64,000 nt of DNA from Neophaeotheca triangularis (Eukaryota). This document shows, piece by piece, positions 2 through 30,889 of the stretch (position 1 is the first letter of the stretch; each line of letters begins with the position of its first letter). Position numbers and translations under genes: made by a program. The notes beneath the pieces were generated by a model, which was given only the letters and a program-made list of their open reading frames with translations, ran no database searches and had not been told where the DNA came from. The DNA is taken from positions 124,001 through 188,000 of the forward strand of contig BAAIJX010000029.1 in assembly GCA_054600435.1 (NCBI GenBank), read 5' to 3'.

Positions 2-712
2 CTCTGCGGCGGTCTGATCTCCTTTGAACGCACCCTGATCCCCATCTCGAAATGGACTTCAATCCCCCTCAACCCCTCCAACTTCACCCACTACCTCACC
101 TCAGGCTACTTCGAAGACTACGCCAAACTCGCCTTCACGCTCGCCGCCCGCGCCATTGACCTCTTCGCCACCTTCCGCGCCAGCGAAGGCGCCTTCGGCA
201 GCGCCTCCACCGACACAACCGCCTACGCCCAAGCTTGGCAATCCCTCTTCACAACGCTCGAAACCTGGTTCCTCCAACGACCACCCGACATGCAACCCCT
301 CACCACCGCCCCAGCAACCTCAACCTCCCCCTTCCCAACCGTCCTATATACTTCCCCCTCCGGCTTCAGCGGCAACCAATTCGCCCACACCACCGCAATC
401 CTAATGCTACAACGCAAACCCCATCGCCACCTCGCCAAACCCAACACCAACAACAACACCATCGGCAGCGGCAGCGGCAAATCCATCCTCTGGCACGCTC
501 GTCAAATCTGCGGAATTGCGCTTAGTAACGACCATCACGGCGGGTGGATGAATAGTATCCAGCCGATTTGGATTGCCGGGAAGCTCATGAGTCATCCGAG
601 CGAGCATCGGGTGCTGCTTGCTTGGTTGGAGAGGGTGGAAGGGGAGACGGGGTGGGCGACGCGGTGGCGGAGGGAGGATTTGAGGGAGTGGTGGGGTGTG
701 GGGGAAGATTGA
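2..712 (+). CDS. 3' part of a fungal-specific transcription factor (C-terminal domain of a Zn2Cys6-type regulator); 5' end outside the window
   Basis: Open frame from position 2 (LCGGLISFERTLIP...) to TGA at 710-712. It contains PFPTVLY...GNQFAHTTAILMLQ...SILWHARQICGIALSNDHHG...QPIWIAGKLMSHPSEH...LERVEGETGW, typical of these C-terminal domains. Confidence 0.7.
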   Translation, partial: LCGGLISFERTLIPISKWTSIPLNPSNFTHYLTSGYFEDYAKLAFTLAARAIDLFATFRASEGAFGSASTDTTAYAQAWQSLFTTLETWFLQRPPDMQPLTTAPATSTSPFPTVLYTSPSGFSGNQFAHTTAILMLQRKPHRHLAKPNTNNNTIGSGSGKSILWHARQICGIALSNDHHGGWMNSIQPIWIAGKLMSHPSEHRVLLAWLERVEGETGWATRWRREDLREWWGVGED

Positions 713-5313: not shown

Positions 5314-5867
5314 GATGCCGAGGTAATGCGTGGTATAGCTGCGATTGAGTGGGATCAAGGAGGTGTGAGCAGGGCTCGCAAGGGAAGCTTGCTCAGTCCT
5401 CGCTGGCGGGATTGGGAAGATCCTGACAGGGTCGGGCGGTTGGCCTTTTTTCACTATCAGCGTTGTATTAAAGGTCCGGCGATAGTGGCAAACATGTCGC
5501 GTAGCGAAATCAACAAGGAGAGGATGAAGAGAGTGTTTGTGAGATGGTGGAGGAGGGGGAGGAATGACGAAAGAAAATAGAGAAGGTACAAGTAAAAGGT
5601 ACAGTAAGGTGCCTTATAGGGTGTGCCGGCATCGGTTGTGGGGCAAACAAAGCTTACAAAGTCATGAAGATAAGATGGATAACTACTATATACCTGGCAC
5701 TCCGACTCTCTACATTAGACGACATTACCTTATTAGTTTTCCGTCCATGAGCTACCGTGCTCCCTTGCGCGACCGTGAAAACCAAGTGCACCGCGTGCAC
5801 GATATTAAGGTATGACCTTTGCACCTCGCCGCGACCCACTCAATCTCATGCTCGGTGTTGAATTTTG

Positions 5868-6594
5868 ATGAAGCACCGACCTCGAGATGAGGTCTCCGGC
5901 GGAGGTACGCCTGGACCACGGTCAACCAGCCGCAACAGCACCATCCCCGAGCCAGAACCCGCCCACCTCAACCCAGAGCACCACGGCAGTGACGACGAGC
6001 GAGAAGCAACCGAACTCCGCGACACCTCCCATCTTTCGCGTCCCGAGCACCAACCTCCGCAGCAGCAGCACTGGTACACCCCTGTGCAGCAATTCTGGCG
6101 ACACCAAATCCAGCTATCCGTCCCGCACGTCGACTGCCGCGACCACCTTGGTAGGCACCGCAACCACCCACTACATCCAGTCACCATGCCGTCTAACACC
6201 CCGCCCCCTCAGCAAACGAACGCACTTTCCTAGGCTACCTGCGCACCTCCGTCGCTCTCGCCATCATCGGCGCCGTCATCGCGCAACTCTATCGCTTGCA
6301 GAATCCGCTCCCAGAGGCTGGCTTTGGGTACTATGGCGTCGGTAGACCGCTGTCGGCAGTGTTTCACTGCTCCGCGCTGGGGGTGACGCTGATGGGAGCC
6401 TGGAGGTTTTGGCAGCAGCAGAGCGCCATGGCTGTCGGGAAAGTGCATGCCGGTGGTTGGGAGGTTTTGGTCGTTATGGGTTGGTCGATTGTGGTGAGTT
6501 TATTTGACATGAGTTGATGTGGGGGTTGGGTGCTGATTCTGTTTGGGTGCAGCTTGTTGGATTCGTGTTCGTGCTGCACTTGGTGCTGGAATGA
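5868..6594 (+). CDS. DUF202-domain membrane protein, 3 exons (introns about 6151-6213 and 6494-6552)
   Basis: Splicing restores CRDHL/ANERTFLGYLRTS (DUF202 signature) followed by hydrophobic helices. Both introns are GT...CTAAC/CTGAT...AG; stop is TGA at 6592-6594. Confidence 0.8.
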
Positions 6595-9500
6595 TGTTGA
6601 AATCATGCCGCCATTCCGCTGGACTTTAACATCGGATTAAACCGGCCTAGTATCTATTTCCAAGGGAGGAGCGATCATCTAGTGAAGCGGTCGTGGGATG
6701 GCGTTATGGCCATCCCGCATCGACCAACCGAGCCTGCTGCCCTTGATGCTGCGGCAGTGCAACCGTATATGCGCTACTGTCATGGTGAGCTAGGAATGTC
6801 CCTTACCCAGCGAGAAACGGCCGGCCATCGGAGACAGCAACAGACTCCAAAGGCAATCAATGCTTTCTTGATTGGGGGACAGGGCGATCTCGACATTGTT
6901 GGCTTACCTTTTCGACTAGGAAGCAGGTTTCGGTTTCTATTTGCAAATGAGTCGAGGTGAACAAAGACGAGATGCTGTTGCCCGGCGTCATCTCGAAAGG
7001 AGAAATAAATGACCTCCGCCGTCGCCAGCAACTCAAAGCGGAAGTCTACTTACCAAGCCTCCGCAAATCATATCCAACGAGCGAAGGTTAGTTGTGCAAG
7101 TGTAATAGCTGAGTCAATATGGAAGAAAGACGACGCCTGACCTGGTCACCCAGCTATTGCTGAATCGACCTTGACTCACTGTACTCTGGTCTTCTGCACT
7201 GCTCGAAAACAACGCATGAATGACGACGTGCTTCACCATCACATAGACTCTTTAGGCGCTGGTCGTGGAATGCCGCTTTGGGCCTATGAGTGCAATGACA
7301 CCCAGCACAAGCCATAGACTCCCCACGGGAGCCAATGCGAGTGTGCTGCATCCTATTTCCCAGTAACCCTACCGCGACCAATCTCGAGAACTCGGTGTTG
7401 GTCCCCCCCAAGACATCCAGATCGATGTCTCCCGAGCGGCGTCAGAGCCAGTGGCCTGGTTTCGACCAGCCACAAGACTTCCTAGGGAACTCGTAGCGAG
7501 TGGCAAGTTGTGGAAGGGGAACGCTGAGGGCCTGACAATGTAGATTCCAAGCAACTCGGTCGGGTCGTCGCTGCTCATCGCCTGCCGAGTCGTTCTCCAA
7601 TGGTGGCCTATTGATTGTATAGATGATCTAGCAAAGCCTCGTTCGTTGTGCAATGTAGTGAACACAGCCGCTGTCCTCTTCTGCAACCTCAGTTTCAAAA
7701 TACAAGTATTTCTTCTCTCGGTGTCGAGCTGGGAGGGAAAGTATAGCGCAGCCCGAAGTGCGCAGTAGCGGGAGGCCCATTGTATCTAGCCGTGATGGTA
7801 CTGTCCGGGGACGCTTCCAGTTCTAAAGCTCGTGCTTGGATTGCCACGGTTGAGATTGGAGCGAGCGCATCTCTCCGCAGACGGCTACTCAGCAAGCACG
7901 GTACGAGCTGTCCCTTCGCAGAGCGAATACGGTCGATCGTTCCGAAGGCAACGTGACGCACGCCATCAAGCCGATAGAAAGGTCGTCGCTTTCAAAAGAA
8001 CGACAACGACTCACTACCCGATCTCGCGGCTGATTAGCACTTGGAGTTTTATCAGCCCTGCCTCTCAACCTACACCAACAATTTCGAAACGGCTATAAAG
8101 CAAGCAACCGACAGACGATTCCACGCAAGGCCAGCTCGCAACTAACGCCCCTCCGCCCTCAACAATATCCACGTGGTTTGGTGCAATATCCAGCAGCTCG
8201 AGGCGTTCATCCGCCTTGCGGCAACGCGCTCCAACACGTGATGCTCACCCCATGCGTGCGGCCGATCGCTAAGGAACGCGTTGGGATCCTTTATACAATT
8301 TATTGCTTAAGCGAGTCGGAGGCGTTGCGTGGGGCGGGCCACTTTTCCCGACCAGGTACGAGAGCCGAGGGAGTGGTGTTACCGCTGTCTGCTCACTACC
8401 ACTATTATCACTACTTATCCAGCCGGTGGTGTCCAGGGTTTTCAGAGCCGGGATAAGGCTGATGGGTTTTGTTCGTGGTCGGCATAGTAGGAAGTGCCCT
8501 TGTTCATAAGATCTGCTGATGAAAGGTATCGCTTTGGACGTTCGAAACTTCGATTGCATGCGTTTGTGTTTGATGCTATGCAGCCGTTTTGATGTTTCGT
8601 TTCGAAAAGTCACTTTGTTCAAATTAAAGGTACGGTATCTGTAGGTGGTTGATTGACTGTGTTCCAAGGCGGAAGGAGTGTTGGATTCTCCCGCGCAGTA
8701 GCGGTTCATATATCGCATTCGCAAGTCGACGTTGATGGCTGCGGATTCAGGGTCGCTGGCATTCCTTCCGCGTGGACTTACCTGGAGCTAATCGATTGCC
8801 TTAGGCCCCTTTCGATCAAGTCGTAGCCTTGTTGGGAGCAAACCTCACCCGTCAAGTTCAAAGATGAGAGGACGGCAACATGATTCCTTCAAGCTCGCGT
8901 GCCAATGAGAAGGCTTACACATGCGGCCAGCTCTTTGACTGGCTGTGGATTTATGGGGTCCGGGTAACCCTACCGAGCTAATGGGAACCGAGGCGTTGAT
9001 CTGTGCACGTCTGTGTCAGGGGTATGATGTATTGTGGATGCGCACATTCGCCCAAGCTGGTGAAATAGGCTTTGACTGAAGAGTCAAGATATAAGGTCTC
9101 GATGAGTTGGACGCATTGAGGCTTGGTGTTGATATCTTGTGATGTTTCTTTCTGGTGCAGTGTTTTACCAGTACAAGGCGGGAGATTGGTGACCAGATTG
9201 GCAGATCCCCTTTTCGGTCTCATGATTAATGGCGCAACAGGATCCGAGGCAGATTGAGTTGCGGTGGCCTTTGTGACGGGAAACGGTGAGGTTTCGATGA
9301 CCGCAGAGAATAAATGCTAATGCCTGCAGTTCGATTCGACGGAAGTGCGCCGACCACGGCCGACCTTCAGCTTCGGATCACAGACTTGCTGATATAGGCT
9401 GTATCATTGCCGCAAACGACGGAGGATGGGGCGCACTTCGCTGGCGATCACGCACAATTTTCCCTTGCCAATGTTGCTCGTATCTTTCCGAACAGGAAGG

Positions 9501-11040
9501 TGGGACACACACCTCGTGGGGAATCGGGATCAGGATGTCTCATCAATCTGGAAGGGGCCAGATTCCATGTAGATAGAACATTCAGGGGCGTGAATATGAT
9601 CCAAGCGTCAGGAAAAACTGATGATCCTCCGCTTGTCTCGAGCAATTGATTGCAATCACTACCTGACAAATGGAAAGCTTTCCTTTTCCGAGCGGCGCGC
9701 GGTCAAAGTCTTGTCCAAGCTCAGCAACTCCTAGAGACGGCCACGGACGACTGGCTTTCGGTGCCTGGCGTACCGCGTAAGGCCCACTTTTGGTGGGAGC
9801 TTGCACTGTGACGCTGCTGCGCAGTTGTTCTCTGTACGACCGTTAAGTGGTAGTAGGAAATTTCTGAGTGTCGACCACTGGATATCTGTGAAGACGTTTT
9901 GACAGGGATCTGCCCCGCGCGCATACGAACTCTGTTGCTCGGCACTGTACTTAGCGTGCTCGTGCGTGCTGTACCTGAGCAGCCAAGCAGAGGCTAAAGC
10001 AGGGCAATGATCCGACTGCACCAACGCGACAGCGCGGCTCAGCGCAGAGCTTCCCGCCAGCCTGTGTCGTGAACAAAGGGATTGCGGAGAGTCCTAGAGG
10101 CCAACAGCAGCGGCCTAGTCGCCAGGTTGGCGGACTCGGACGACCCAAGCAGGACGTCTCACGCTCAATCGCCAACTCAACCACTACTCAGATAAAGTCT
10201 TGATCCCGCGTACAAGAAGGATGCGGTCGTCTTTAAGTGCTGCGACTGGTGCGTCTGCAAAGGCGCTGGCGCCTCACGCCCGCCAAAGGTTGCCCTTGGA
10301 GGATTGCCGACGATCCCCTGTGATCCTGGTAGCAGTAGTGCAGGTGGTTCATGGCGGCCACTGCGGCCCTATCTTCTGCTGCAAGGGCAGTCTGGGAAGC
10401 TCCTCGCGTGGCCAGTGGCACTAGTCGACCTGCATATCTGCATGTCTACGGCGGCGTTGGGTCTGGTTCTGCTCGAGCGTGCTCTTCTTTTCTGGCATTG
10501 TTAGGACGTAAGTCGCCCTCTGATCTCATCCATCTGTATTATCTTTCTGTACATTCAACAGCGCTTGCTTTCCTTTTTCCTGAATACGGGCAGACCATCT
10601 CTCTTTTCGTCACTAGCATCGATAGTCTACGTCGGACGAAAGCCAACGCCACCACTCGTCTTACCACACCTCGCGAGCGCCGCTGCGACCATCGGGTGTG
10701 AGGACTTCCGGATCGTCGACATACGGAAACCGTTTGGATTGGAGGTGGAAGAGAGGAAGGCGAGACGTCGAAACAGAGAAAATTCCCCATGACCTGACGT
10801 TAAGATATCTCTTTGTCCAAACGGGAAGGCACGATGCTTTGAGCGGGGGTACCTTCTTCAAATGCGCCTTCGAAACCAACGTCACCTCTTCCCGGGCACC
10901 TGTAGCCCTCGCCTATAACGACGTTCATCCTCTATAACGACATCTATCACGATACCCCTCACAACGATACCCCCCAACCACCCCCAGCAACATTACACCT
11001 CTCTCACATCGAGTCGACGGTTGCTTCTCTAGTCTCTGAC

Positions 11041-12999
11041 ATGGCTGGCAACTCATCAGCCCTCGTGGGCGACTGTATCCCTCCTTTTCTGGATGCCTCT
11101 CTGTTTCCCCAGGAAGGCGGATGTAGGTCGCTATACTGATCTTCTGCTCATTCTACCGGACTTCATGCTAACCCCGCTGGCACAGTCGTCTCAGGAAGAT
11201 TATGTGCTCCCATAGAAGGACTCGATGGGGATCCCCTATGTTGTCTGCCTTGCCCAACTGCGGACTGGGTGTACCCCGACAGTTTTTCAACTTACAATAT
11301 CGTTGCCGAATGGCTTAACGTCGTCGGCCTAATGCTGATGGTCTTTTTGCTAACATCGTACATCTTCTTGCCGGCACAAAAGACGAGAAGTCACTACCTA
11401 AGCGTCTGCCTGGTAGTCGCCGTGATCATGTTATGTCTCGGCTTCACGATACCACTGGCGGCACAACCGGACCAGTGTTACAATGAGATCACGCCCAACG
11501 ATATGTACTCCTCGATGACTTGCGCGTGGAGCGGCGCATTCATCATTGGCGGAGGGATGTGTGCTGCCATGTGGGTTCTGGTCAGAGCACTCTCGATGAA
11601 TCTCCAGATTTGTTGGGACATCGTGCCGGGGAAGAAATTCTTCTATGCCTCGCAAGCGCTTGGGTGGGGCATCCCAGGTGTCTTGTTCACGGCCACCATG
11701 ACAGTCACAGGCGTGAGCTTCCGCTTTGGAAACGAATGTCATGTGAATCACGACAACAGCATGGCTACCTTTTGGGGTCCTCTAATGGCGATCGCAGGTC
11801 TGGCGGGTATAATACAGCTCATCACTCTGGGTTACTGTATCCACGTCTACCTTAGGAATCTCTGGAGCGACCAGCCACCAACATCGACAACGGGGACAGG
11901 CTCAAACAGCGCCCTACCTTCCTACAACAATAGCGTCCGAACGCAAACTGCAAGAGCGGTATATCGACGTCTAAAGAAGGTGCTGTGGTTGCAATGGCGC
12001 GGGATATGCATAGTAAGCATTATTCTAGTGGACGTCATCTTCTTCAGCACCGTCTTTGTGTACTTGGACTCGCAAGAAAACACCTTGAGCAGCGACATTG
12101 AAAAACTCCAGCCTTGGCTTCGATGCCTAGGACAATATCCGGAGGATAATGACGAATGCGTAGACATGGTTCAAGGCTTGCTAGTAAACGAAGGAACGGT
12201 CGTAGCGGTGCTCCTCCTGCTTTCCGTCGCCGGCTTCCAAGTCTTCATCTTTTTGGTAAGACCATCGATCATGGGAGCCTGGAAAGACTTCTTTCAAACA
12301 CGCTTCGGCAAGCGTCAAGAGTTTGTATCCCTGGACGCTGCCCGACCGAGCGTTGTCCGCACAAACTCAAAGCACGAGCTCCTCCGATACGAACGAGGCC
12401 ACCAAAGCACGACCTTTGAGATGCAACAACCCAACTCCCGAGAACCACCCGCCCACGTCCCAGGCTTCGACTGGGATACTAAGGAGTTCACCTGCAGCCC
12501 AACCCAAACGGTCCTCAGCACCCCCGACGAAACCTACCGCTCACCCGTAACCCGCACCCGCAACTCTCCTGACTTCAGCACAAGCCACGATACTAAATTC
12601 AGCCTCGCCGACTCCACCCACAACACATTGAACCGCAGCCGCTTTGCCGCGGAAACGACACCAGAAGTCAGGAGCGCCCCCATCTCTCCACCCACAACCC
12701 GCCACAACCACCCTCCCGACTACTTCTCCACCCACCGCCAATCCCAAACAGGCACCCATCGAACCCCCTGGGCGGCTTCCAACACGAGCAGCGGCCGTCA
12801 AAGCCACGACCGCGTCTATAAACCACCCACGTCTTCTTTCGCCCAACCCAAGACGCCCTCGCGCCAAAGCAGTGTGCGCAGCCCCGGCATCGATGTCCGT
12901 GAATTGCGGGACGCGGGCTACGCGCGCGGCGGGCTGGGGTTGAACCCGCCTAGTGAGGTTTGGGAAGAGGAGAGCGAGGGAAAAGGAAGGTGGAGGTGA
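11041..12999 (+). CDS. Fungal 7-TM G protein-coupled receptor, GprM/MG00532-like; intron 11123-11185
   Basis: ATG at 11041; splicing gives GGF VSGRLC...CCLPCPTADWVYP. Seven hydrophobic segments and a long S/T/P-rich cytoplasmic tail follow. Confidence 0.8.
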
Positions 13000-13420
13000 G
13001 GTGTATTTTTGATTAGGTACCTTGTTGTGTACGCGACAGAGCGTGCGGTCGTACGAGATGAGGTTGAAGACTAAATGCGAATGGAAGGTGGCACCAGGGG
13101 GCTGAAGACATGTTTCCGGTGAGGAGGCGAGTTTGTATGTACATTTTGTCGCATTATCTGTCTGTTTGTAAAGAAAAGTAGCCGTCCAGGGGTCGGGAGG
13201 GAAAGCCCAAATGGTGGCAAAACAATGTAGCACAACCGGATCTAAGTGGAATAAGCACTTGTCCCAGATGTCAAAAGAAAATCTCAATGATTTGGCATTC
13301 TCCCACTACGAGAGTAGTAATGACTCCATGGAGCAATGCAATTTTTCGCTAATGGTACAACCTCACGCAAAACCTAAACCCATCCAAACCTCGACGAGAG
13401 AGAACTGAGAACCAAACCTT

Positions 13421-15133
13421 CTACAACTCATCATGCCCCTCATCCGTGTCCGGAACTCCCGTGCCCTCAGCCACAGGCTCCCCCTTCACAGTCTGCCCGT
13501 CCGGCCCCTCTCCCGCTTCCTCTTTCGCGACCTTCTCCTGCCCAGCCATCCCCTTCTCCGCAAAGGCATTCATCAACTTCTCCACGGCCGCATCGTCCAA
13601 CTCTTCCAAACCCTCCATTACCAGACCCTCGGGCAACTCGGCTTTAAGGCGCTCGAGCTCCTCTTCCGCAGTCCCGCGCTCGTATGTGGGGATTTCGGGT
13701 TTTTGCTCCAGATCCGCTTCGGGGTCGAGAGGGGGCAGCGAGTCATGGTCCGGCACCAGGGTTGAGGACTCGGGGAAAGGGGATTTTGCCAGGTCGCCCA
13801 TGCGAATGGCGTCGATCCAGTCTTCGAGGGCGGTCATGCCGTAGATAACTTCTGGAGCGCCGTTGGGGGTGGGGGTGTAGACGCGGTACCAGCCGCGTTT
13901 GGCATTGGTGGCGACAATTTCGATGTCGTTCGGGGAGAGGTTGAGCAAGGTGCGCAGGTCTTGGGCCAGGGGCACGGCGTCGGGGAGTTGGTAGAAAGGG
14001 AAGAGGTTGCGGTTTTGGGTTGTGTATTTGTGGTGGATGTCCGAGAGGCTGATAATAGCGGTGTTTTCGGCTTCGGTGGCTTCGCCGCTCGGGTGGAGTG
14101 CGAGGACGCAGGTTCCCGCGCGAGTGTTGAGGCAGGCATGGTGGAGGGCGTTGGTGCTGATCAAGGAGGCGATGGGTTTGGCTTGGCGGAGGTCGATGGG
14201 TTGGGAATGAGGGGACTGCGGGTCGGGCGAGGCCGTGGGGTTGGAGTCGTCTTCGAGACTTTCGGCGGTTTGGGAGGCAGCGGATGCCGCGGCTTCTGAG
14301 GAGGCGTGGGAGGCGGAAGTTTTGCTAAAGGCTGAGGAGGCGCTCTTGTCGCTCTTACTGCTCGAGGTTTTGGACTTCTTTGGCGCAGGATCGGGGTTAG
14401 GGGTCGCGGCTTGAGTGAGGAAGGAGACCATAGCTTCTTTCTTCATCTCACCATCGTAAGTGATGGGGTCTTTGTCGCCGCCGGGGAGGAGAACAAGGGC
14501 TGGGTATTTTTCTACGCCAAAAACCTGGACGGCTTGCCTTTCTGTCTTTCTGATTTGAGCCACGTCTATGCTGCCGAGGAAATCTATGGCGATGGACTTG
14601 AGGAGCGCGCTCGCTGCCCCTTTCTCGCTAAAAAGTATTGCTTTCGGACCATCACCCTCCAAAAAACTCTCGAAATCGCCGTCCTTGACCTTTTTGACGT
14701 GGTTTGGGATTTTGTCGACGACCGAATCCACAATGGCTTTAGCTGTCCTCTGCCCCTGGTAATCCTCGACAATCGGCTTCCCAGGCTTCTTCCCAGGCTT
14801 TACGATCTTCAGCGTGGGGAATCCCTTGACATCCATCTGCCCGCAGAACGGCTTGTTCATCTCTTCATCGCAATTGACGGCGGCAACTTTGGCCAGACCT
14901 TTGAGGTTCTTGGCCGCTTTCTCGTAGGCGGGTTTGAGGTTCTGGCAGTGGCCGCACCATGGCGCGTAGAACTCGACTATGCTGGTATAGTTTGATTTGG
15001 CAATGAGGTTTTGGTAGTTGCTCCCGTCGACGTTCAGGACGCCGCTGTCTTTGCCATAGATGCCGGCGGTCAGGGCGGAGGGGAGAAGGAGAAGGGATGC
15101 CGCAGCTGCGGTTAGGGTGTGGGCGTGCACCAT
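13421..15133 (-). CDS. MPD1: ER protein disulfide isomerase-related protein (Mpd1/PrpA-like)
   Basis: Signal peptide, thioredoxin motif VEFYAPWCGHC, GFPTLK, and a C-terminal HDEL ER-retention signal. Confidence 0.9.
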   Translation of the reverse strand: MVHAHTLTAAAASLLLLPSALTAGIYGKDSGVLNVDGSNYQNLIAKSNYTSIVEFYAPWCGHCQNLKPAYEKAAKNLKGLAKVAAVNCDEEMNKPFCGQMDVKGFPTLKIVKPGKKPGKPIVEDYQGQRTAKAIVDSVVDKIPNHVKKVKDGDFESFLEGDGPKAILFSEKGAASALLKSIAIDFLGSIDVAQIRKTERQAVQVFGVEKYPALVLLPGGDKDPITYDGEMKKEAMVSFLTQAATPNPDPAPKKSKTSSSKSDKSASSAFSKTSASHASSEAAASAASQTAESLEDDSNPTASPDPQSPHSQPIDLRQAKPIASLISTNALHHACLNTRAGTCVLALHPSGEATEAENTAIISLSDIHHKYTTQNRNLFPFYQLPDAVPLAQDLRTLLNLSPNDIEIVATNAKRGWYRVYTPTPNGAPEVIYGMTALEDWIDAIRMGDLAKSPFPESSTLVPDHDSLPPLDPEADLEQKPEIPTYERGTAEEELERLKAELPEGLVMEGLEELDDAAVEKLMNAFAEKGMAGQEKVAKEEAGEGPDGQTVKGEPVAEGTGVPDTDEGHDEL

Positions 15134-21430: not shown

Positions 21431-23167
21431 AGTTTGGGGAGATGTGGATGGGGATGGATGGCAAGAGGGAAGGGAAAAAGCTGTGCTAGGCTGTTGAGTG
21501 GGCTTGGAGGGAGTGGATTGGGATAGAGGAGGGGGAATGCGATGGGATCTTCGATGGAGAGTGTTGTTGTCTTTTATGAACACGAAGATGATGGATTTCT
21601 GCCCGGTGTTGATCAGAAGATGCTGACGAGGATGGCAGACACGCCGCTCAGACGCAAGTTTGTTTTTAGATATGTACCCGTTCGGCCTTTTGAAGCTGTG
21701 TATTTGATGCCATCCTTCCTGACGAGCGATACCTCCGCGGGCCCGAAAGTCTGACCGCCTTGGCGTTTTGGTATAGGCTTCATATACATACAATCAACTT
21801 TAAACACTCATATCTCTATCAAACAATGTCTGAATACACTCCAAAAAAGCGCGCACGCATCGCACAATACCGCTTTGTCGATAGGTTACCATTCCCAGAG
21901 ATTGCACGCAAAGTCGATGGCATAACTCTAGCAGGCGCACGTACGGTATGTCGAAGGGCTTTATAGCGCGCCGGATCAAATAACATCGATAAGGTCCTTC
22001 AAAACATTCATTCTGCACATAGGTCTAGTGCTCCTAGGCGTGTAGAACTAGGGAGTAATCTTTCCGTACGGATCCGACAACGTATACGCGGTCTAGACTA
22101 GGGTCAAGATTAGATAGAGTCTGCTAACCGAACGTTTCATACGACGCGATCTTAGTACTACCCAAACCATATACAACTAACTAAAGATCTTTATAGAACA
22201 CAAATTCAGAACATCCGGCTCTCGGCAAACCATTATAAAGGAGATACAATTAATTCGAAGCGGATTAAACGAAATAGAGGCCTTAAAAAGACACCTCTCG
22301 AAAAGCTAGATTTTAGGCATAGGAAACAGGCAATTAAGACAATTTTGAGCTATAGACAGGATAAGGTGCTTCTCGTATGTATAGACGAGACTGTTATAGG
22401 GTTTGGAGGCTCTCTAACTAGTTATAGCTAACGGCATTATAATATGAGCGTACCGGAGGGTACATTAAAAATCGTCTTAAAGAGCATAGATTTCAAATTT
22501 ACTAAGATGTAATAGGCGGCTGCCTATACTGACACAAGGGTAACACGACCTTATTTAATCTAGATACTAGAGGATGAGATTACTCTAGAGGAACTAAAGA
22601 ACAGACTAGACGAGTCAAACTATCAAATGCGTCAAAAGGTCGAGTAGTAAAGAGCATAGTCAAAAATCCCTAGCATACCCGAATGATAACATCTAGCTAT
22701 ATTGAATTGCTAGGTAATAGAGCATAATAATGCCCTTCCCCTAGGCTAAAAGAGATACTCTAAAAAGCAGTTTACACCGGAGAGAGCATTCAAAACGAAG
22801 GATGTTACTAGAGCTAATCATAAGGGTAGACTAGACCATGTCTACTATGCCTTCAAGGTGTACTAGGACCTATTACTTCTATATATCTAGTAGCTTAAGG
22901 CCCTTAACCCTAGTAAGAGAGTCATTATTACTAAAGACAATGTATTACTACACTATAAGGCTAGGGGGTTACTTACTCTAGAAATAGAGCAGCTTAGTGT
23001 TAAGTTTTTTGACAGGCTAGCTAACTTACATGACCTCTACCCTATTAAGTACCTTTATAAGGATTAGAAGAAGGAGCTTAATAAGTATCGGTTTACTGTA
23101 AAAGGCACAGGCCGTGCTATACAGTATAAAGTAGAAGGTTATATAGTAAGGGTTTGGCAGAGATTAG

Positions 23168-23649
23168 TGTTACGAACACTACGCTGCGCCTAGCGTACAA
23201 TAAGGAATGCTTAGTGGAACCTACGGTCACGGGACAGAGCATATTCAGGTCACGTGACGAGCTTACCTCTGCTTAGTGCTTACCTTTAACTAAGCACTAC
23301 TAAGCAACAGAGTAGTGCTTACCTCTGCTTAGTGCTCACCTTTAACTAAGCACTACTGAGCAATAGAGTAGTGCTCACCTCTGCTTAGTGCTCACCTTTA
23401 ACTAAGCACTACGGAGCGACAGATTATAACGATTAGAGACACGAATCTCCTTTGTATTTAGGTAGCGACATTTCCTAGATAGAGATTTGTGTTTAACTTA
23501 TGTTACAATCTTACTGAAAGGTCTATAGCGACACTTCACGTATCTTTGAAATCCTTACGATAAAGGAAACACCCTTGCTAGCCTTCTTCGATATCTCTCC
23601 TCTTCCGCTACGAGCTCTACCCGTAAGACTACCTTGTAGGATCGCAATA
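23168..23649 (+). repeat. 5' LTR (TGTTACG...GCAATA; terminal CA changed to TA)
   Basis: Aligns end to end with 29955-30436. The differences I compared are C/T or G/A transitions. Confidence 0.96.
23261..23423 (+). repeat. Three tandem 56-bp units inside the 5' LTR
   Basis: Units start at 23261, 23317 and 23373 (GCTYACCTCTGCTTAGTGCTYACCTTTAACTAAGCACTAC...). Confidence 0.92.
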
Positions 23650-23689
23650 CTTTAAACACCCTCTAGGAAAGAGAGATTAATAGGCAAGT

Positions 23690-25909
23690 ATGTCCCTATC
23701 CGATAACCGAGACGCAAGCGTCGCCAGCACTTAACGAGGAGTATCGACTATAACAACTAATAAGGTTGCCAAACTAGACTACTTCTACGGCGAACGCAAC
23801 AAGCTAGACGACTAGGTTAACTAGATGATGATGTTCTTCCTCATAGAAAGCGTTAGTGAGTAGAAGCAACCTCTTACTGCTACTTCTTTCCTTCGTGGAG
23901 AAGCTTAACACTAGATCCGCCTAAAGCTTACGGATTTCCTTATGGAACGAATCGACCCTAAAGGACTGTTCTCGAACTAGAAGTCTTTTGTTAAGGTCAT
24001 CCGCAACGTCTATAGATTAAGCAACGATCGACAAGTTGCTATCCGAATGATTTAGCACCTCACGTAGAAAACGTCTGCCTCTTAGTACACTGCCAAGTTT
24101 CAGGAGTACTTAGCTAAGACCGACTAGGACGACAACGCTCTTATAACTATGTACTACCGAGGACTTAAGGACAACGTGAAGGACGAACTTATACGTCACG
24201 GAGGCGATCAGTTAACGCTCCCCGGTATGATCAAATCGGCGATTAAAGTTGATGACGCTCTCTACGAACGGTTTATAGAAAAACGCCACACTGGACAATT
24301 TCGCGGACGAACTAGCTATACTACCGGCAGCCGGCCTGTCGGTTAGCAACGTCGCAATCCTAATACGATGGAACTCGACTCTACGTAACAGCGTCCTAGG
24401 AAGGGTAGGGATAGAGGACGGGGTAAACAGAATGCCCCGGGCAAGAAACGGAACGGACCGGAATGCTACAACTGCTACAAGATAGGGCACTATGCACGAG
24501 ACTGCCGTGGGAAATAGATGCGCCCACGCTAGGAGGTTAATGCGATTTTGACCCGACAGGATAACGACTCTCCTACTAATAAGAGCCGCGGAGCTTACGA
24601 CATTACCGGAACCTATGAAGAACCGGAACACGACGAACTTCACTAGAGGTTTTACGAAAGGGATTATTGCTTAGTGCACAAAAGTTAAGGACTAGTGACT
24701 AACGGTATATCTACTAAACCTCGGAAGGAAGTGAACGTCATCGAACGAGTTACCCCGAAGTCCGGAACGGACGCGCTAATCGAGCAATACTAGAAGCTTA
24801 GGGAGTTTCACGACGACTTGGTTAGTTATGAGGAGTAGACCGAAGAACACTTTAACCTTATGATTTAAGTAGCCGATCAGATAGCAGATCTGAACGATAG
24901 GATCAAGGCTATAGCAGACGAAGAATCTAAGTAGCCGCGTAAGCCTTAGAAGGAACTTAACATGATGTTAAGACGCTAACCACTATAGTAGTCAAGGGAC
25001 GACGGCAACGCAGCCCGAGGAAGGTCCCTACCTCCATTTGTATAGGAGGACGACAAACTGCAAGAAAACCGAGCACTATCACCGATAATGGCACTACCGA
25101 CACCTGACTTAGAGAACGAAAACATATCTTAAACACCGGAACTTACTGCGATTGTACTAACACCGGAGATTAGCCCCTTAAGACTATCGATGCCTCTAGA
25201 AATTCTAGAATCACAAGAGGATACGACAGTGACGGATTCCGAAGACGACTCCGAATACGAATATACCGACGACGAAGAACCCGACGACAACGACACCTTA
25301 AAGTTCATTGTAGAAGGACCTACACTAATCAAGAAGATGGTTACCTACATCGCACGATCGTACGAAGAAGTGTTCCTAGTGATCTAAGGCAAACGACGCT
25401 TAGAACCTAATCAATTCGAAGCCATGCTTATGCGACTACGAACAATGTTCTAGAACTACCGAAAGGTCGCCGTCGAGTATAACGCCGCCACCTTTGTCCA
25501 GGATAGGCTACTAATAGGAAGCACTTTCTACGGAGAAAACGGCTACATTACACTAGATGGGATACGAATCCTATACACGATGAGACAACGAGTTAAGACA
25601 GTCAAGAATCGTTACAGAGAATTCTAGCTTATCTAGGAGCAGTAGAGAGAAGAAGAGATCACGCTACAAGAAATGAAGAAGCAAGCATAGCATTCCTTGG
25701 ACCAATGGACTATAGTACCACGCGACAAGTTCTTACTACTAGTCGACCGAAAGATGATTCTCGGACACGTCAAAGCAACTATACGAGGACTAATCACCGC
25801 ACATGCAATCTAAGGAAAAGTCACGATTAGACCTCGGGACGGACCCCTTTACTAGGAAGTCTCTCTCGAGACAGCGGATTCATCTACCTACTTCTCAAAA
25901 AACGAATAG
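23690..25909 (+). pseudogene. gag: gag ORF (about 740 codons) with internal RIP stops
   Basis: ATG at 23690. Capsid-like motifs (FYGERNKLDD, YYRGLKDNVKDEL), zinc knuckle CYNCYKIGHYARDC near 24463-24505, and a long in-frame extension to TAG at 25907-25909. Confidence 0.85.
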
Positions 25910-28900
25910 GACCTGTCGCTAAGAGCGAGCGTTAGGAACTGAACAACACAAATGCTTAACACGAAATAGCATTAGGAACGGTCTTCCGAACAACATATAC
26001 TGTCGACGGATACGAAACCTTTGCTATAATAGATTCCGGAGCTAGCGGAAACTTTATCTCGGAAACGTTCGTACGTTAGCATAGGTTAGCTACCTAGAAG
26101 AAAACAGATAGCGGGTACGAACTAATAGCCGTGGACGGCTTATCACTACCCGACGTGGATAGCGAAACAGTACCGCTACTACTTGTCTTCTAAAAGCATC
26201 ACGAGCGAATTGTCCTAGACGTTGTGCCTATAGCTAGACATAACGTCGTTCTGGGCACTCCTTAGTTAGAACGACATAATCCTATAGTGGATTAGAGAAA
26301 ACGAGTACTTACATTCGACAGGTATAGTTACGTCACTATAACCTACCCTGCGCGCCGGTAGCGATCGACGGTAGATAAGAGAAGGCAGATTAACGAAACG
26401 TATCGCTAATCGACCACGATACTAATACGAATTGGATCGGACTCCATAGGTACCGAACTAGCCTAAACGGACTAGCAAGTGAGAGTTGAGGAAGGAAGTT
26501 ACGCACCTTCGGATATCCCTAGAGAATTTAGAAAATGGAAGCGCCTTTTCTAGGAAGAGGAAGGAGCAGCCGCTCTACCTAGACATCAACTATAGGACTA
26601 CCGAATCGACATTTAGCCCGGTGCAAAGATACTATGGGGGCCACTTTACGCGCTATCCGAAAAAGAGCTCGAAGAGCAACGACGATAGCTAGATGAAAAA
26701 ATGAAGAAAGGATGGATTCGACCCTCTACTTCATCAGCCGCTTTACTACCGTTTTTCGTTCCGAAGAAAGGAGGAAAACTACGAATGGTTATCGATTTTA
26801 GACGACTCAACGCGATCACCACTAAAAACCGTTATCTACTGCCTAACATCGACGAGATAAGAGATCGACTTACCGGTTTATACTAGTTCACTAAGATCGA
26901 TCTCCGAGATGCATTCTATTTAGTTAGAATGGCAAGGGGGGAAGAGTGGAAAACAGCTTTTCGAACGCGCTACGGACTTTACGAATTCTAGGTTATGCCT
27001 ATAGGACTCACAAATGCCCTAGCAACCTATTAGCAACTCGTTAACGACATCCTGCGAGACCTACTCGATATCACTGTCATCGCCTACATCGACGACATAT
27101 TAGTCTTCACGAAAGGATCACGAGAACAGCATACTAAGGACGTACACGCAGTATTCGAACGACTCGACAAAGTAGACTTCAGGACAGCACTAGAAAAATG
27201 CGAGTTCTACAAAAAGGAAGTCGACTTTCTAGGCTTTGTGATTAGCACTACCGGGATCCGAATAGACCCGAAGAAAACCTAATCGATCGAGGAATAGCCG
27301 ACACCTAAGACAGTTAAGGACATCTAAGCATTCCTCGGATTAGCTAACTATAATCGGAAATTCGTGTAGGATTACTCAAGGCTCGCTACGCCTCTAACTA
27401 ACCTTACGAAGAAAGACACACCATTCGTATAGGGAAAGATTTAATAACAATCCTTTGACAAGCTTAAGGAGTCATGCACGACTGCCCCTACGCTAAGGAT
27501 GTTTGACCCTAAGAAACCTATCTAAATCGAAACCGATGCCTCTAACAGAGCAATAGGAGCTTGCCTTACGCAGGAGGTTAAAAGCAAACGACACCCTATC
27601 GCTTACTTCTTAAGGAAGATGTCACTAGCGGAACAGAATTACGAGATCTACGACAAAGAACTGCTCGCAATCGTTGCAGCATTGCGATACTAGAGAGTGT
27701 ACTGTGAAGGAGTAACCGGACTGACTATTTACTCGGATCACAAGAACCTGCAATACTTTATAACCACTAAGGAACTGTCACGCCGACAATGTAGATAGTT
27801 AGAGCTACTCGGACAATACAAGTTCGATATAGTCTACACTCCCGGAAAGGACAATAGGCGCGCTGACGCGCTAAGCAGAAGAAGCGACTATATAGAAGGA
27901 CACCTTCTATAGCAACACCGCATACTGAAAGTTAATAAGAACGGAAGCCTAAGCGCTAACCCTTAGGAATTTAACTTAGTACTGCGAGTACTACGGGATA
28001 ACACCGAGGAATTCCCTGTCGAACATAGGAAGTTCAGGGTTCTAAACGAAAGGGAACGCTAGTGCATCTAGGACTACCACGATAGACCTACTAACGGACA
28101 TCTAGGAATCGCTAGAATAGTAGAACACATTAGACGCAACTTCGTGTTCCCCGGAATGAGACAGAAGGTCTTAGAGTACATCAAGAAATGTACGAGCTAC
28201 TAACGAAACAAAGCTTCGAGACACGCTAAATATAGGAACCTACAATTCTAGGAGCTACCGGATCTACCATGGAACGAGGTCACAATAGATTTTATCGTCA
28301 AGTTACTAAGATCTAAGGACCCGTTAACAAGTAAGGACTACGATTTAATTCTAGTTATAGTCGATAGACTTACGAAGTATTCACATTTCGTTCCCTATAA
28401 CGAGACAATTACTATAGAAGAACTCGGATACCTTGTTCTCGACAGATTAGTACGATACTACGGCATTCTAACGGTTCTGATTACGGATAGAGACAAGCTC
28501 TTTACATCTAACTACTAGAAGACCTTGATATTAGCGATAGGAGTGAAACACAAACTCTCGACAGCATTTCACCCTAAAACCGACGGATAGACAGAACGCT
28601 CAAACCAATCCCTCGAAACGTACTTAAGACATTACGTCAACTACGCTCAGGACAATTGGGTAGCGCTCTTACCTATGGCATAGCTCGCACTCAACAATAA
28701 TGCCTTAGAAACGACAGGCACGACTCCGTTCTACGCGAATTTCGGAAAAGATCTAAACACCTTTATGGAGCTAAAGCTAGGACTACTCGCGGAAAGAGCC
28801 CTGCAAACGTCTTCGTAGCTACAGGAAGCACACAAATAGGCGAAAGACAAGATCACATAGTCGCAGCGGCGACTCGAGTTACAAAGACATAAGGACTCCA

Positions 28901-29360
28901 AAACGGCACCTTAGCTAAAGAAGGGGGATAAGGTGTACTTACTTACGAAAAACCTGAAGATAAGGAGACGAACACGAAAACTAGACTATGTCAAAGTCGG
29001 ACCGTTTCTGGTTAGAGAATAGAGAGGAAAAGTCAACTACCTCCTCTAACTCCTAAAAGACGCTAGAGTCTACCTAGTCTTCTATGTATCCTTATTAGAA
29101 CTAGCAGACGCCGAAACACCTATCTAAGATACCTTCTATCACGATCTACTAGAGGAAGAAGCCGAGTACGAGGTCGAAAAGATTCTAGACAAAAACGGTT
29201 AGAACTACCTCGTAAAGTGGAAAGGGTATCCTACAAGCGAGAACACTTAGGAACCTAAGGACAACTTACTTAACTGCCAGAAGATCCTACGGCAATATTA
29301 CTAGGAATTGGACTAAGGTCCTAAAACTCGTTAGGCAGGCCGTCTATCGAAGTCTAAGTA
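25897..29360 (+). pseudogene. pol: pol ORF (protease, RT, RNase H, integrase, chromodomain) in the -1 frame, with RIP stops
   Basis: Protease [43 protein letters not shown] and YIDD (27085); RNase H ETDAS and [12 protein letters not shown]; integrase H-x5-GH, VDRLTKY, TDRDKLFTS, TERSNQ and GPF; chromodomain EYEVEKIL...YLVKWKGY...EN. The 3' end is approximate. Confidence 0.92.
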
Positions 29361-29890
29361 AGAGGATTTAAAGCCAGATCGGGACCCGGTTGATCAGGAG
29401 GAAAGTCGGGATTAAAGAGCTTGTTACTGCCTTCCTCGAGCTCGAGGAGCTCGATGTTACGCTCTTTAATAGCTATAGCCTCTCCCTCCTTCTCCTACAA
29501 ACGGTCTATTTGTTTCTAGAGACGTATTTCCTTAGACAACGAACGATTTGCTTCCTCTTGAGCCTCGGCCACCTTTTGCTAAGTAACAACGGACGTACAC
29601 CGAGCCTCTTCCATCGCCTTGCGAAGACGCTCGTAATCACGACGAAGACGAGCGAACTCGTTCTCCGTTACTCTCACATCGCAAGAAGAAATGTTTCGCC
29701 GTACGCAGGCAGCACACTTTCTAGACCGAATGTGCACCTTGTACATACGACCCGCCTCCCGGCATTGCGTACATTTTCGAACTATGTTAAGAACCGTTCC
29801 GTGCGAATCTAGGAAATTGAATAACTCGTGGCGACGGGTAGTGGAAGATTTCTTTGTTTTGGGTATCGCGTTAATAAAGGAAGATGCCAT
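29270..29890 (-). pseudogene. Antisense third ORF of the retrotransposon (about 206 aa): Zn2Cys6-like cluster, coiled coil and acidic-aromatic tail
   Basis: ATG at 29890. CTQC-x6-Y-x8-CAAC-x7-C, where Y is TAC (revertible to TGC). The five internal stops are all TAG (revertible to CAG or TGG), and the frame runs to TAA at 29270-29272. Confidence 0.7.
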
Positions 29891-29941
29891 TAACTATAGA
29901 ACGAAAGACAAGTAGAGAATAAGCTCGGGACGAGCTAGACT

Positions 29942-29954
29942 AGGAGGGGGATAG
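29942..29954 (+). other. Polypurine tract (plus-strand primer)
   Basis: AGGAGGGGGATAG lies directly before the TG of the 3' LTR. Confidence 0.9.
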
Positions 29955-30436
29955 TGTTACGAACACTACGCTGCGCCCAGCGTACAATGAGGAATGCTTA
30001 GTAGAACCTACGGTCACGGGACAGAGCACATTCAGGTCACGTGACGAGCTTACCTCTGCTTAGTGCTTACCTTTAACTAAGCACTACTGAGTAATAGAGT
30101 AGTGCTTACCTCTACTTAGTGCTCACCTTTAACTAAGCACTACTAAGTAACAGAGTAGTGCTTACCTCTACTTAGTGCTTACCTTTAACTAAGCACTACA
30201 GAGCGACAGATTATAACGATTAGAGACACGAATCTCCTTTATATTTAGGTAGCGACATTTCCTAGATAGAGATTTGTGTTTAACTTATGTTACAATCTTA
30301 CTAAAAGGTCTACAGCGACACTTCACGTATCTTTGAAATCCTTACGACAAAGGAAACACCCTTGCTAGCCTTCTTCGATATCTCTCCTCTTCCGCTACGA
30401 GCTCTACCCGTGAGACTACCTTGTAGGATCGCAACA
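29955..30436 (+). repeat. 3' LTR (TGTTACG...GCAACA), with the same 3 x 56-bp array
   Basis: 482-bp direct repeat of 23168-23649 with TG...CA termini. Confidence 0.96.
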
Positions 30437-30889
30437 ATTAGGAACATTTAATGATTTAGTAGCAAACAAGGCCTCTTTAAGCTACTATAAAGGCCTAGCT
30501 TACAAGTTAAAGCACTCTAATCCACCCTATGGCAATAGATACAAAGATAGCCTTTAAATTAATAGAGCAACACCTTGTCAAAGACCTATACTATACCGAA
30601 GTTCATGCCAAGAGCGGTCAGACTTCCGGGCCCGCGGAGGTATCATTATCAGGGGCTTCCATTCTTATCGATAAAGGAGCTTTCCCCACGTCAGCTCAAT
30701 GCCCTGGGCGAGGTGTTTACCATGACGACAGCTGTGATGCTCTTCTGACGATCCATGGATGGGATAAAGTAATAGAGCAAATAATCCAGATGTACCTAGG
30801 ACAGAACATGCCCTTTTTCTGCTCTTTAATGGCATATTGAGAGCGGGTCGTCGTTGGTCATCGTCGTCGCCATTCCCGCAATTTCCAAG

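Follow-up and report, generated by a model that had tools for sequence, protein, structure and literature searches.

We analysed a stretch of 64,000 nucleotides of Neophaeotheca triangularis DNA (contig BAAIJX010000029.1, positions 124,001 to 188,000; hereafter the window, in whose own numbering positions are given). The window contains a complete Ty3/Gypsy chromovirus of 7.27 kb (23168–30436), and on the minus strand of this element, between the end of pol and the 3' long terminal repeat (LTR), we find the remains of a further gene. We consider it probable that the element is a copy of an ascomycete chromovirus, killed by repeat-induced point mutation (RIP), whose lineage carries a third gene encoding an antisense zinc-cluster-type dimer. 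Besides gag and pol, the lineage would thus have a gene for a protein of ~190–200 amino acids (aa) on the opposite strand, between the end of the chromodomain and the 3' LTR. A preliminary description of the window had interpreted the minus-strand frame as a Gal4-like regulator encoded by the element itself, and this first reading is partly supported by our results.

The frame in the window runs on the minus strand from an ATG at 29890 to a TAA at 29272–29270 and comprises 206 codons. When we re-read it, its structure was as had been claimed: the ATG lies 65 nt from the 3' LTR, which begins at 29955, the translation reads CTQC-x6-Y-x8-CAAC-x7-C with a Tyr codon (TAC) in the motif, a helical stretch is followed by an acidic/aromatic tail, and the five internal stops are all TAG (first bases 29581, 29518, 29497, 29356 and 29323). 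No other frame of the window carries the six-cysteine pattern. With a word-indexed search, we detected three stop-free relatives of 158–199 aa that share 63–85% identity with the window frame. At the five TAG positions the relatives have Gln, Arg, Gln or Glu, Trp and Trp, and elsewhere the window frame departs from its closest relative mostly by changes of the G-to-A or C-to-T type (M>I, G>R, G>S, D>N, E>K, A>T, H>Y). Two of the relatives (P0003 and P0004) have a Met where the window has ATA (29866–29864), a position that the shorter gene call P0002 does not reach. Furthermore, other copies in the two sequencing runs of the source organism carry TGC at 29742, CGG at 29517/29518 and ATG at 29864, where a C on the plus strand corresponds to ATG on the minus strand. 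Because of the intact relatives and the unmutated copies, we conclude that the ancestral gene was open, had six cysteines and started eight codons downstream of the ATG at 29890. The Cys that had been predicted at the Tyr position is indeed present in the intact relatives and in the other copies (TGC). The suggestion that the TAG stops can be reverted to CAG or TGG applies to four of them (Q, Q/E, W and W in the relatives) but not to the stop at 29518, which corresponds to Arg in the relatives and from which the other copies differ at both 29518 and 29517, that is by two transitions. With its start and its third Cys lost and with five stops gained, the window copy is a pseudogene killed by RIP.

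To compare the frame with the rest of the window, we searched all six frames with a profile of 60 intact relatives. The sole significant match was 29869–29282 on the minus strand (E 7e-52), which shows that the antisense frame is beyond chance; the same search returned one further row, 60307–60242, with a domain E of 6, which is at chance level.

The gene is real and widespread. Among 1.84 billion representatives, HMMER detected 309 clusters (clustering at 50% identity) with E<=1e-3, 85 with E<=1e-10 and 14 with E<=1e-30, and most of the proteins have a length of 160–215 aa. Across 60 aligned full-length members, no column other than those of the six Cys is invariant, and a Ser of the third loop is shared by at least 90% of the members. 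The six-Cys pattern was found in 87 of 154 proteins, the rest including N-terminally cut fragments, and 76 of these 87 have the spacing C-x2-C-x6-C-x8-C-x2-C-x6-C or the same with a last spacer of x7. Common to the family are also an N-terminal 'SST.RR' helix, the loop signature VH(V/I)RSG(R/K) between the third and fourth Cys, which is family-specific, a 'CD.(R/K)VT..E(F/W)' stretch right after the last Cys, a long helix and a C-terminal 'L.P..W ... G..D.FW' motif. The database names of the family proteins give nothing beyond 'hypothetical protein'. In the ESM Atlas, the nearest clusters to the whole protein are unnamed Ascomycota proteins of 192–214 aa (score 0.94), and a search with the Cys domain alone returned nothing usable (scores 0.77–0.79). 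Longer fused forms of the family were absent among 8000 candidates, which is weak evidence. In one protein of 514 aa (P0085), ankyrin repeats at ~230–363 precede a stretch (369–492) that matches the family over its C-terminal two thirds and lacks the first Cys pairs. P0085 may result from a fusion in the gene model, or a host gene may have acquired a portion of the retrotransposon gene.

The gene is tied to chromovirus elements. Scanning metagenome contigs with a 14-member alignment yielded 56 loci with 32–49% identity to the query. For 20 of these loci we tested the open reading frames (ORFs) on the opposite strand beside the gene, and all 20 are chromovirus pol. Eleven of the 20 are uninterrupted (1151–1258 aa); 18 begin just downstream of the gene, with the chromodomain, SH3 and integrase end facing it, and two (L006 and L048) lie further on. 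A tblastn search with one such pol detected pol downstream on the opposite strand in 45 of the 56 loci. Where at least 400 nt are available downstream, the nearest pol edge lies between -194 and +183 nt from the match end in 41 of 44 loci, and the three exceptions (L046, L047 and L050) are copies of one internally deleted element of 2.4 kb that still holds the ORF. The antisense ORF is thus conserved in related elements, as the preliminary description had predicted. The frame is open from Met to stop over at least 150 aa in 36 of the 56 loci; in the other 20 it is broken or cut by contig ends.

The deletion derivative (L047, 7548–9957) has two LTRs of 326 bp that are 92% alike and a gag fragment, it has no pol, and it keeps the antisense gene, which in L046 and L047 is an open frame of 175 aa but is broken in L050. 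The copy in L047 sits in a normal-GC island between AT-rich stretches. In ten contigs (L006–L009, L021, L022, L024, L028, L030 and L039) the ends are exact repeats, 123–174 nt long, of the contig's own start. It seems that one LTR and the internal region were assembled here into a circle, as would be expected for a multi-copy LTR element or for one-LTR circles; because the end repeats would reflect such an assembly, we set the LTR limits in these contigs from the polypurine tract.

In the runs of the source organism, read depth is ~800–2000 over the gene, ~5800–14000 over most of the adjacent pol and up to 32000 at the LTR end. Several contigs from these runs leave the window sequence at 29283–29298, which is exactly the end of pol; therefore, related families that carry pol there have a diverged 3' region. 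The end of one departing contig, reverse-complemented by hand in the frame of the gene, reads A-D-F-W-D-F-G-A-G, which is a diverged form of the C-terminal motif.

Purifying selection on the gene is as strong as on pol. To estimate the ratio of nonsynonymous to synonymous divergence (dN/dS), we reduced 34 open frames to 31 distinct coding sequences, leaving out two frames that extend beyond the family length (L028 and L037) and the 20 broken or cut ones. The proportion of nonsynonymous differences was lower than that of synonymous differences (pN<pS, Nei-Gojobori) in 464 of 465 pairs, and 18 pairs with 0.05<dS<1.5 were used for dN/dS. The 11 closest pairs (dS 0.42–1.36) have a dN/dS of 0.03–0.15, which is well below 1, as would be expected of the functional ORF first proposed, and pol has a dN/dS of 0.05–0.16 in five of the same element pairs. 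The overlap with pol does not exceed ~130 nt (~35 nt in the window), and thus the constraint belongs to the gene itself.

We then asked which kind of protein the gene encodes. The consensus of the fungal Zn2Cys6 cluster (Pfam PF00172) is C-x2-C-x6-C-x5-12-C-x2-C-x6-8-C, and its fold consists of two short helices, each starting at a CxxC, round two metal ions. The Cys spacing of the relatives fits this consensus, while the window copy has a Tyr at the third Cys. Zn_clus (PF00172) is the commonest sub-threshold Pfam match of the family, with 29 of 60 members at E<=1 compared to 10 of 60 for the next (DUF5651), and the matched stretches that were listed fall on or just before the Cys motif. When all PDB sequences were searched at E<=10 with a 47-residue profile of the Cys region (42 members), 10 of the 11 matches were Gal4-type Zn2Cys6 proteins: LAC9 (E 0.022, with all six Cys aligned), two entries each of LEU3, Pho7 and GAL4, one each of AlcR and PUT3, and a chain named CBF3 subunit B from an entry titled 'nucleosome and Gal4 complex'. 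The 11th match is a cysteine-rich spider toxin.

A similar picture emerges from structure prediction. The AlphaFold2 model based on the 60-member alignment has a mean predicted local distance difference test score (pLDDT) of 86.2 and contains helices at residues 8–22, 33–38 and 52–56 (both short, one per CxxC), 68–151 (long) and 180–188 (short). Foldseek against the PDB gave nothing at E<=0.001; at E<=10 it gave 21 matches, of which the best 16 are all Zn2Cys6 domains with linker and coiled coil, and the Zn2Cys6 proteins among the matches listed are Gal4, Leu3, Pho7, Ppr1, Put3, Hap1, Lac9 and AlcR. Independently of Foldseek, we compared a domain-only model (pLDDT 79.9) to 48,161 chains with VIA-align, where all seven chains with Z>=2 are Zn2Cys6 domains and the best match is LAC9 (Z 3.0, root-mean-square deviation (rmsd) 1.8 A, 33/33 residues). 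As the domain comprises only ~35 residues, weak individual scores are expected, and despite these weak scores the ranking of Zn2Cys6 domains in the predicted folds and profiles appears specific in three different methods. For the zinc-cluster assignment of the preliminary description, the PDB profile, Foldseek and VIA-align thus converge, each with weak support, and in Pfam it stays below the threshold; we regard it as likely that the six-Cys domain is a divergent Zn2Cys6 binuclear cluster.

For residues 28–155, which include the long helix, a homodimer was predicted with a score of 0.35, compared to 0.05 for the best control; the score is a model confidence, and the orientation of helices is uncertain in such models. 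Among proteins with solved structures, 21 of 30 that form pairs of one chain attained a score of 0.35, as against none of 23 that were solved as single chains. Between dimer runs the contact agreement was at least 86%, with a partner pLDDT of at least 73. The predicted self-pairing interface comprises residues 71–130, and its best-defined contacts are those of residue 81 with 116 and 123, 99 with 99, 102 with 102 and 95 with 109. The model thus strongly suggests that the helix of ~85 residues pairs two chains. For the protein as a whole, the order that is strongly suggested is a short N-terminal helix, a divergent Zn2Cys6-type cluster, the ~85-residue pairing helix and an acidic/aromatic C-terminal motif.

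A different identity, C/EBP of the basic leucine zipper (bZIP) type, was considered from weak PDB matches (E ~0.1) of the full-length profile, whose matches were otherwise mostly coiled-coil noise. At the corresponding place of the bZIP basic motif, an Asn is invariant. In the HMMER alignment, both Asn of the C/EBP segment fall into an insertion without counterpart in the family, and this identity was therefore rejected.

The distance between the gene and the LTR is well defined. In 32 of 33 loci, the LTR edge can be recognised by a purine run with TGT behind it, and the spacer from the ATG to the LTR measures 44–113 nt (median 88, 32 loci), with 88 nt in the window from the native start. In 18 loci whose spacers were inspected, a polypurine tract is present in every one, and most also show a short inverted repeat when viewed by eye. 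These inverted repeats are GC-rich and stand a few bases upstream of the polypurine tract (GCTCGGGACGAGC in the window; CTCGAGGACGAG, GCTTCGAGGCGAAGC and similar in other loci). The inverted repeat could help to prime the plus strand, or it could serve one of the two convergent transcripts as a terminator or signal. A promoter would hardly fit into the spacer of ~88 nt with its polypurine tract, and the most likely start of the antisense mRNA is therefore within the U3 region of the 3' LTR. On the short metagenome contigs, poly(A) ends were not found. One run that we guessed to be RNA (X4) covers only the LTR end (30244–30436).

The LTRs are rich in repeated motifs. In the first 350 nt of the LTRs, GAGCA/TGCTC-type motifs occur 138 times in 7,747 nt (17.8/kb), compared to 125 times in 67,453 nt (1.85/kb) inside the elements, which is an enrichment of about 10-fold. 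In 22 of 32 loci, the sequence CACGTG, usually as TCACGTGA, stands at a distance of 60–130 nt from the LTR edge. Within U3 of the element family, for which both LTRs of the window element and loci L001–L047 were considered, the GAGCA/TGCTC-type arrays come after the TCACGTGA palindrome, and some subfamilies (e.g. L007) have TGATCA-type repeats in their place. The 56-bp tandem repeats of the window contain 12 motifs of the forms AAGCA, TGCTT, GAGTA or TACTC versus two intact ones, and from this composition they can be read as GAGCA/TGCTC-type arrays mutated by transitions. The LTR repeats may equally serve host factors.

The element itself stands out in the window by its composition, as the G+C content is ~55% for the window and 40–46% for the stretch at ~22–30 kb. 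The plus-strand frame 25801–29301, translated with X at the stops, yields reverse transcriptase (RT), RNase H, an integrase zinc-binding domain, a Tf2-type SH3 domain and a terminal chromodomain (Pfam RVT_1 2.6e-32, RT_RNaseH 3.4e-31, Integrase_H2C2 3.9e-14, Chromo 6.9e-12), and the window pol shares 56.5% identity over 1143 aa with the pol of locus L007. As LTRs, a target-site duplication, a polypurine tract and the order RT-RNase H-integrase-chromodomain are all present, we classify the element as a Ty3/Gypsy chromovirus (Table 1).

The element is heavily mutated in the manner of RIP. Two RIP indices, judged by the usual thresholds, differ between element and flanks: TA/AT is 1.65 versus 0.67–0.82, and (CA+TG)/(AC+GT) is 0.59 versus 1.12–1.20. 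In the public runs that hold the sequence, nearly all differences between the window copy and the other copies are transitions; run X1, for instance, has 72 C>T, 70 G>A, 53 T>C and 29 A>G differences and six transversions. The 1.2 kb to the left of the element (22000–23167) are also AT-rich and RIP-like (GC 0.386, TA/AT 1.65). This stretch has no match to the gag or pol of L007 or to the 3' LTR of the window, and it may be what remains of an older repeat, or RIP may have spread from the element into its flank.

Table 1. Features of the chromovirus and its antisense gene in the window.
Feature	Position	Strand	Remarks
Antisense accessory gene, dead copy	29866–29270	-	Start now ATA (29866–29864); five TAG stops; end TAA 29272–29270; family profile E 7e-52
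Eight extra codons from the upstream ATG 29890	29890–29867	-	Outside the conserved protein; Met of P0003/P0004 aligns with window codon 9
Six-Cys motif C-x2-C-x6-C-x8-C-x2-C-x7-C	29681–29773	-	Third Cys changed to Tyr (TAC 29743–29741)
Long helix (predicted coiled coil)	29414–29665	-	Residues 68–151 of relative P0003; AlphaFold2 pLDDT 87–98
Acidic/aromatic C-terminal motif LALNPLTW...G..D.FW	29318–29377	-	Conserved; both Trp codons now TAG; short helix 180–188 in the model
Target-site duplication ATTAG	23163–23167 (left), 30437–30441 (right)		Read directly
5' LTR, TGTTAC...GCAATA	23168–23649	+	482 bp; 95.8% identical to 3' LTR
gag remnant	23759–25624	+	tblastn with gag of locus L007: E 1e-49 and 6e-20
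pol (RT, RNase H, integrase, SH3, chromodomain)	25900–29304	+	47 in-frame stops, all TAG/TAA
Chromodomain at pol end	29167–29298	+	Pfam Chromo; residues 1123–1166 of pol translation P0166
Short inverted repeat GCTCGGGACGAGC	29923–29935	+	Just before the polypurine tract, within the 88-nt spacer
Polypurine tract AGGAGGGGGA	29942–29951	+	Upstream of the 3' LTR edge
3' LTR	29955–30436	+	482 bp; CACGTG at 30038–30043; 56-bp tandem unit, 2.9 copies, at 30048–30210; presumed site of the antisense promoter

Extra genes at this place are known from other elements. For fungi, the closest case by description is brtn, whose original paper is reportedly Zhao et al. 2011 (Virology 417:248). This antisense gene occurs in Boty-like Gypsy elements of Botrytis cinerea and Sclerotinia (PMC8365987, PMC7264820, PMC4227169, PMC5987419), is called 'brtn-106' in one citing paper and has been classed with antisense ORFs between pol and the 3' LTR whose function is unknown (PMC7264820). 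A location of brtn beside the end of pol would fit a Monilinia transcript that has matches to both BRTN and a truncated Pol (PMC5987419). Like brtn as these passages describe it, the gene of the window family is an extra gene in a chromodomain Gypsy element of fungi and is antisense to gag-pol. Place and orientation agree, and we do not claim membership of the brtn family. In contrast to what we describe for the window family, the passages on brtn in these papers do not mention a zinc cluster, a coiled coil, a selection analysis or the breadth of the family. In plants, the Ty3/Gypsy elements Grande1, RIRE2, Retand and PvRetro13 have antisense ORFs in the interval from pol to the 3' LTR (PMC7264820), and Tat elements have PMD, coiled-coil and Tr28 eORFs (PMC4408406); for such ORFs beside the 3' LTR in Gypsy elements of plants and fungi, the function is given as unknown (PMC7264820). 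According to these accounts, the plant ORFs resemble our gene in place, orientation and conservation among copies, and some have a coiled coil, whereas they differ in host kingdom and in their domains (plant mobile domain, transposase 28), and none is described there as Zn2Cys6. The window-family gene has the properties of such additional antisense ORFs, as it lies on the opposite strand in the interval between pol and the 3' LTR and its conservation is similar to that of pol. A literature search, for which subscription journals were largely and Repbase-type annotations wholly out of reach, found no report of a zinc-cluster protein encoded by an LTR retrotransposon.

Two further comparisons concern the protein. 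In the models, the family resembles Gal4, Lac9, Leu3, Ppr1, Put3, Hap1, Pho7 and AlcR in the spacing of the Cys, in the helix at each CxxC and in the dimerising helix that follows. Unlike these factors, the family stays below the Pfam cut-off, is marked by a loop signature of its own and by an additional conserved helix at the N-terminus, is only ~190 aa long without the fungal-specific middle homology domain, is predicted to pair in an antiparallel manner and is encoded by a retrotransposon. HBZ of human T-cell leukaemia virus type 1 is a bZIP factor whose antisense transcript starts in the 3' LTR. Here, too, an antisense gene abuts the 3' LTR of a retroelement and, as predicted for our family, encodes a dimeric protein of a DNA-binding type. 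Fold and host differ, and the parallel is an analogy only.

Taken together, a possible mechanism would be the following: the antisense mRNA would start in the 3' LTR and run through the gene, the protein would most likely bind DNA as a dimer, and the repeated GAGCA-type motifs of the LTR would be candidate binding sites. Our best single guess at the role is the control of the element's own LTR-driven transcription, and we put it forward tentatively. In its most far-reaching form, a large clade of ascomycete chromoviruses would encode a Gal4-like factor from an antisense transcript of the 3' LTR, and this factor would bind the GAGCA-type arrays of its own LTR and set the balance between sense and antisense transcription; as a whole, this version is rather doubtful.

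Several results weigh against this interpretation or limit it. The ORF first described with ~206 aa from the ATG at 29890 is real, but its start lies at 29866, and from the alignment with the relatives the native protein would have ~198 aa, not 206. According to the papers that cite brtn, a publication of 2011 already described fungal Gypsy elements with an antisense gene at this place. None of the 60 members reaches the gathering score of Zn_clus (21 bits; best 18.2 bits, E 0.0026), and the window protein and its three nearest relatives have no Zn_clus match at E<=10. The fold scores are low in absolute terms (best Foldseek E 0.87, best VIA-align Z 3.0), and AlphaFold2 may simply be reproducing a fold that it has learned for this Cys pattern. 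In the dimer model, the contacts (i+j ~200) indicate an antiparallel pairing, unlike the parallel dimers of the Gal4 type, and the two clusters would therefore lie at opposite ends. Concerning selection, the seven more distant pairs (dS 1.41–1.50, near saturation) have a dN/dS of 0.40–0.57, and the dN/dS pairs are phylogenetically non-independent. Lastly, Gal4-type proteins usually bind paired CGG triplets, and CGG-Nx-CCG pairs are not enriched in the LTRs (2.23 per kb versus 2.09 per kb inside the elements), where the density of CGG/CCG is even lower than inside the elements. If the protein binds its own LTR, the half-sites would therefore not be classical.

These points can be read in different ways. 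The zinc-cluster dimer encoded by the element could be real and yet not regulate the LTR: it could steer integration, act on the cDNA or the particle, or counter host silencing, in the last case by binding host DNA, or host proteins through the conserved C-terminal aromatic motif. The evidence for the gene and its fold applies equally here, and the missing enrichment of canonical CGG pairs in the LTR also speaks for such a role. The predicted antiparallel rod would hold its two heads far apart, which suits bridging over binding to a single promoter site, and the 2.4-kb derivative without pol keeps the gene, so that the gene may serve in trans. On the other hand, the role of chromodomains in targeting is established and the element's chromodomain already supplies such a module, and dense repeated LTR motifs adjoin the start of the gene. 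We regard a role of this kind as possible without being probable. A further reading keeps the gene and questions the cluster, in that the six Cys could form another small metal-binding or disulfide module that shares with Gal4 only the spacing. This would agree with a family that lies entirely below the Pfam cut-off, with fold and profile scores that are all weak in absolute terms, with the family-specific loop VH(V/I)RSG(R/K) and with the spider toxin among the 11 PDB matches. However, three methods put Zn2Cys6 first and nearly exclusively (10/11, the best 16 of 21 and 7/7), LAC9 superposes on the model at an rmsd of 1.8 A over 33/33 residues, and a dimerising helix follows the predicted cluster as in Gal4, Put3, Ppr1 and Hap1, which makes another module distinctly unlikely.

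It could also be argued that the open frame arose by chance, or that it was captured from a host gene and is decaying as a passenger fragment, in either case without function for the element. The window copy is dead, and in 20 of the 56 metagenome loci the frame is broken or cut by the contig end. This explanation is nevertheless highly improbable, as the dN/dS of 0.03–0.15 is as low as that of pol and, with a pol overlap of no more than ~130 nt, the constraint is not borrowed from pol. Moreover, the 309 diverged clusters retain six invariant Cys, place and orientation are fixed in elements whose proteins share only 32–49% identity, and the divergence of the relatives excludes one recent clone. 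We thus return to the lineage with a third gene for a zinc-cluster-type dimer as the probable reading, within which control of the LTR is the tentative part.

For one large fungal family, our analysis offers a concrete biochemical hypothesis, namely a zinc-cluster, coiled-coil dimer, for a kind of antisense ORF to which the review cited above assigns no function. The material to pursue it is at hand, with hundreds of intact natural variants, selection of the strength found for pol, a fixed distance to the LTR and candidate LTR sites. In addition, the ~190-aa proteins of the family, which stand in the databases as unnamed or 'hypothetical', could receive a transposon annotation. Should the protein control LTR transcription, fungal retrotransposons would carry their own regulator, an autoregulatory accessory gene in an LTR retrotransposon that would be comparable in function to the regulators with which complex retroviruses act on their LTRs. 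In the 5' LTR, the same antisense promoter would then fire outward into host genes, and an own regulator of this kind would bear on how the elements escape or time their activity and on the influence of their LTRs on neighbouring host genes.

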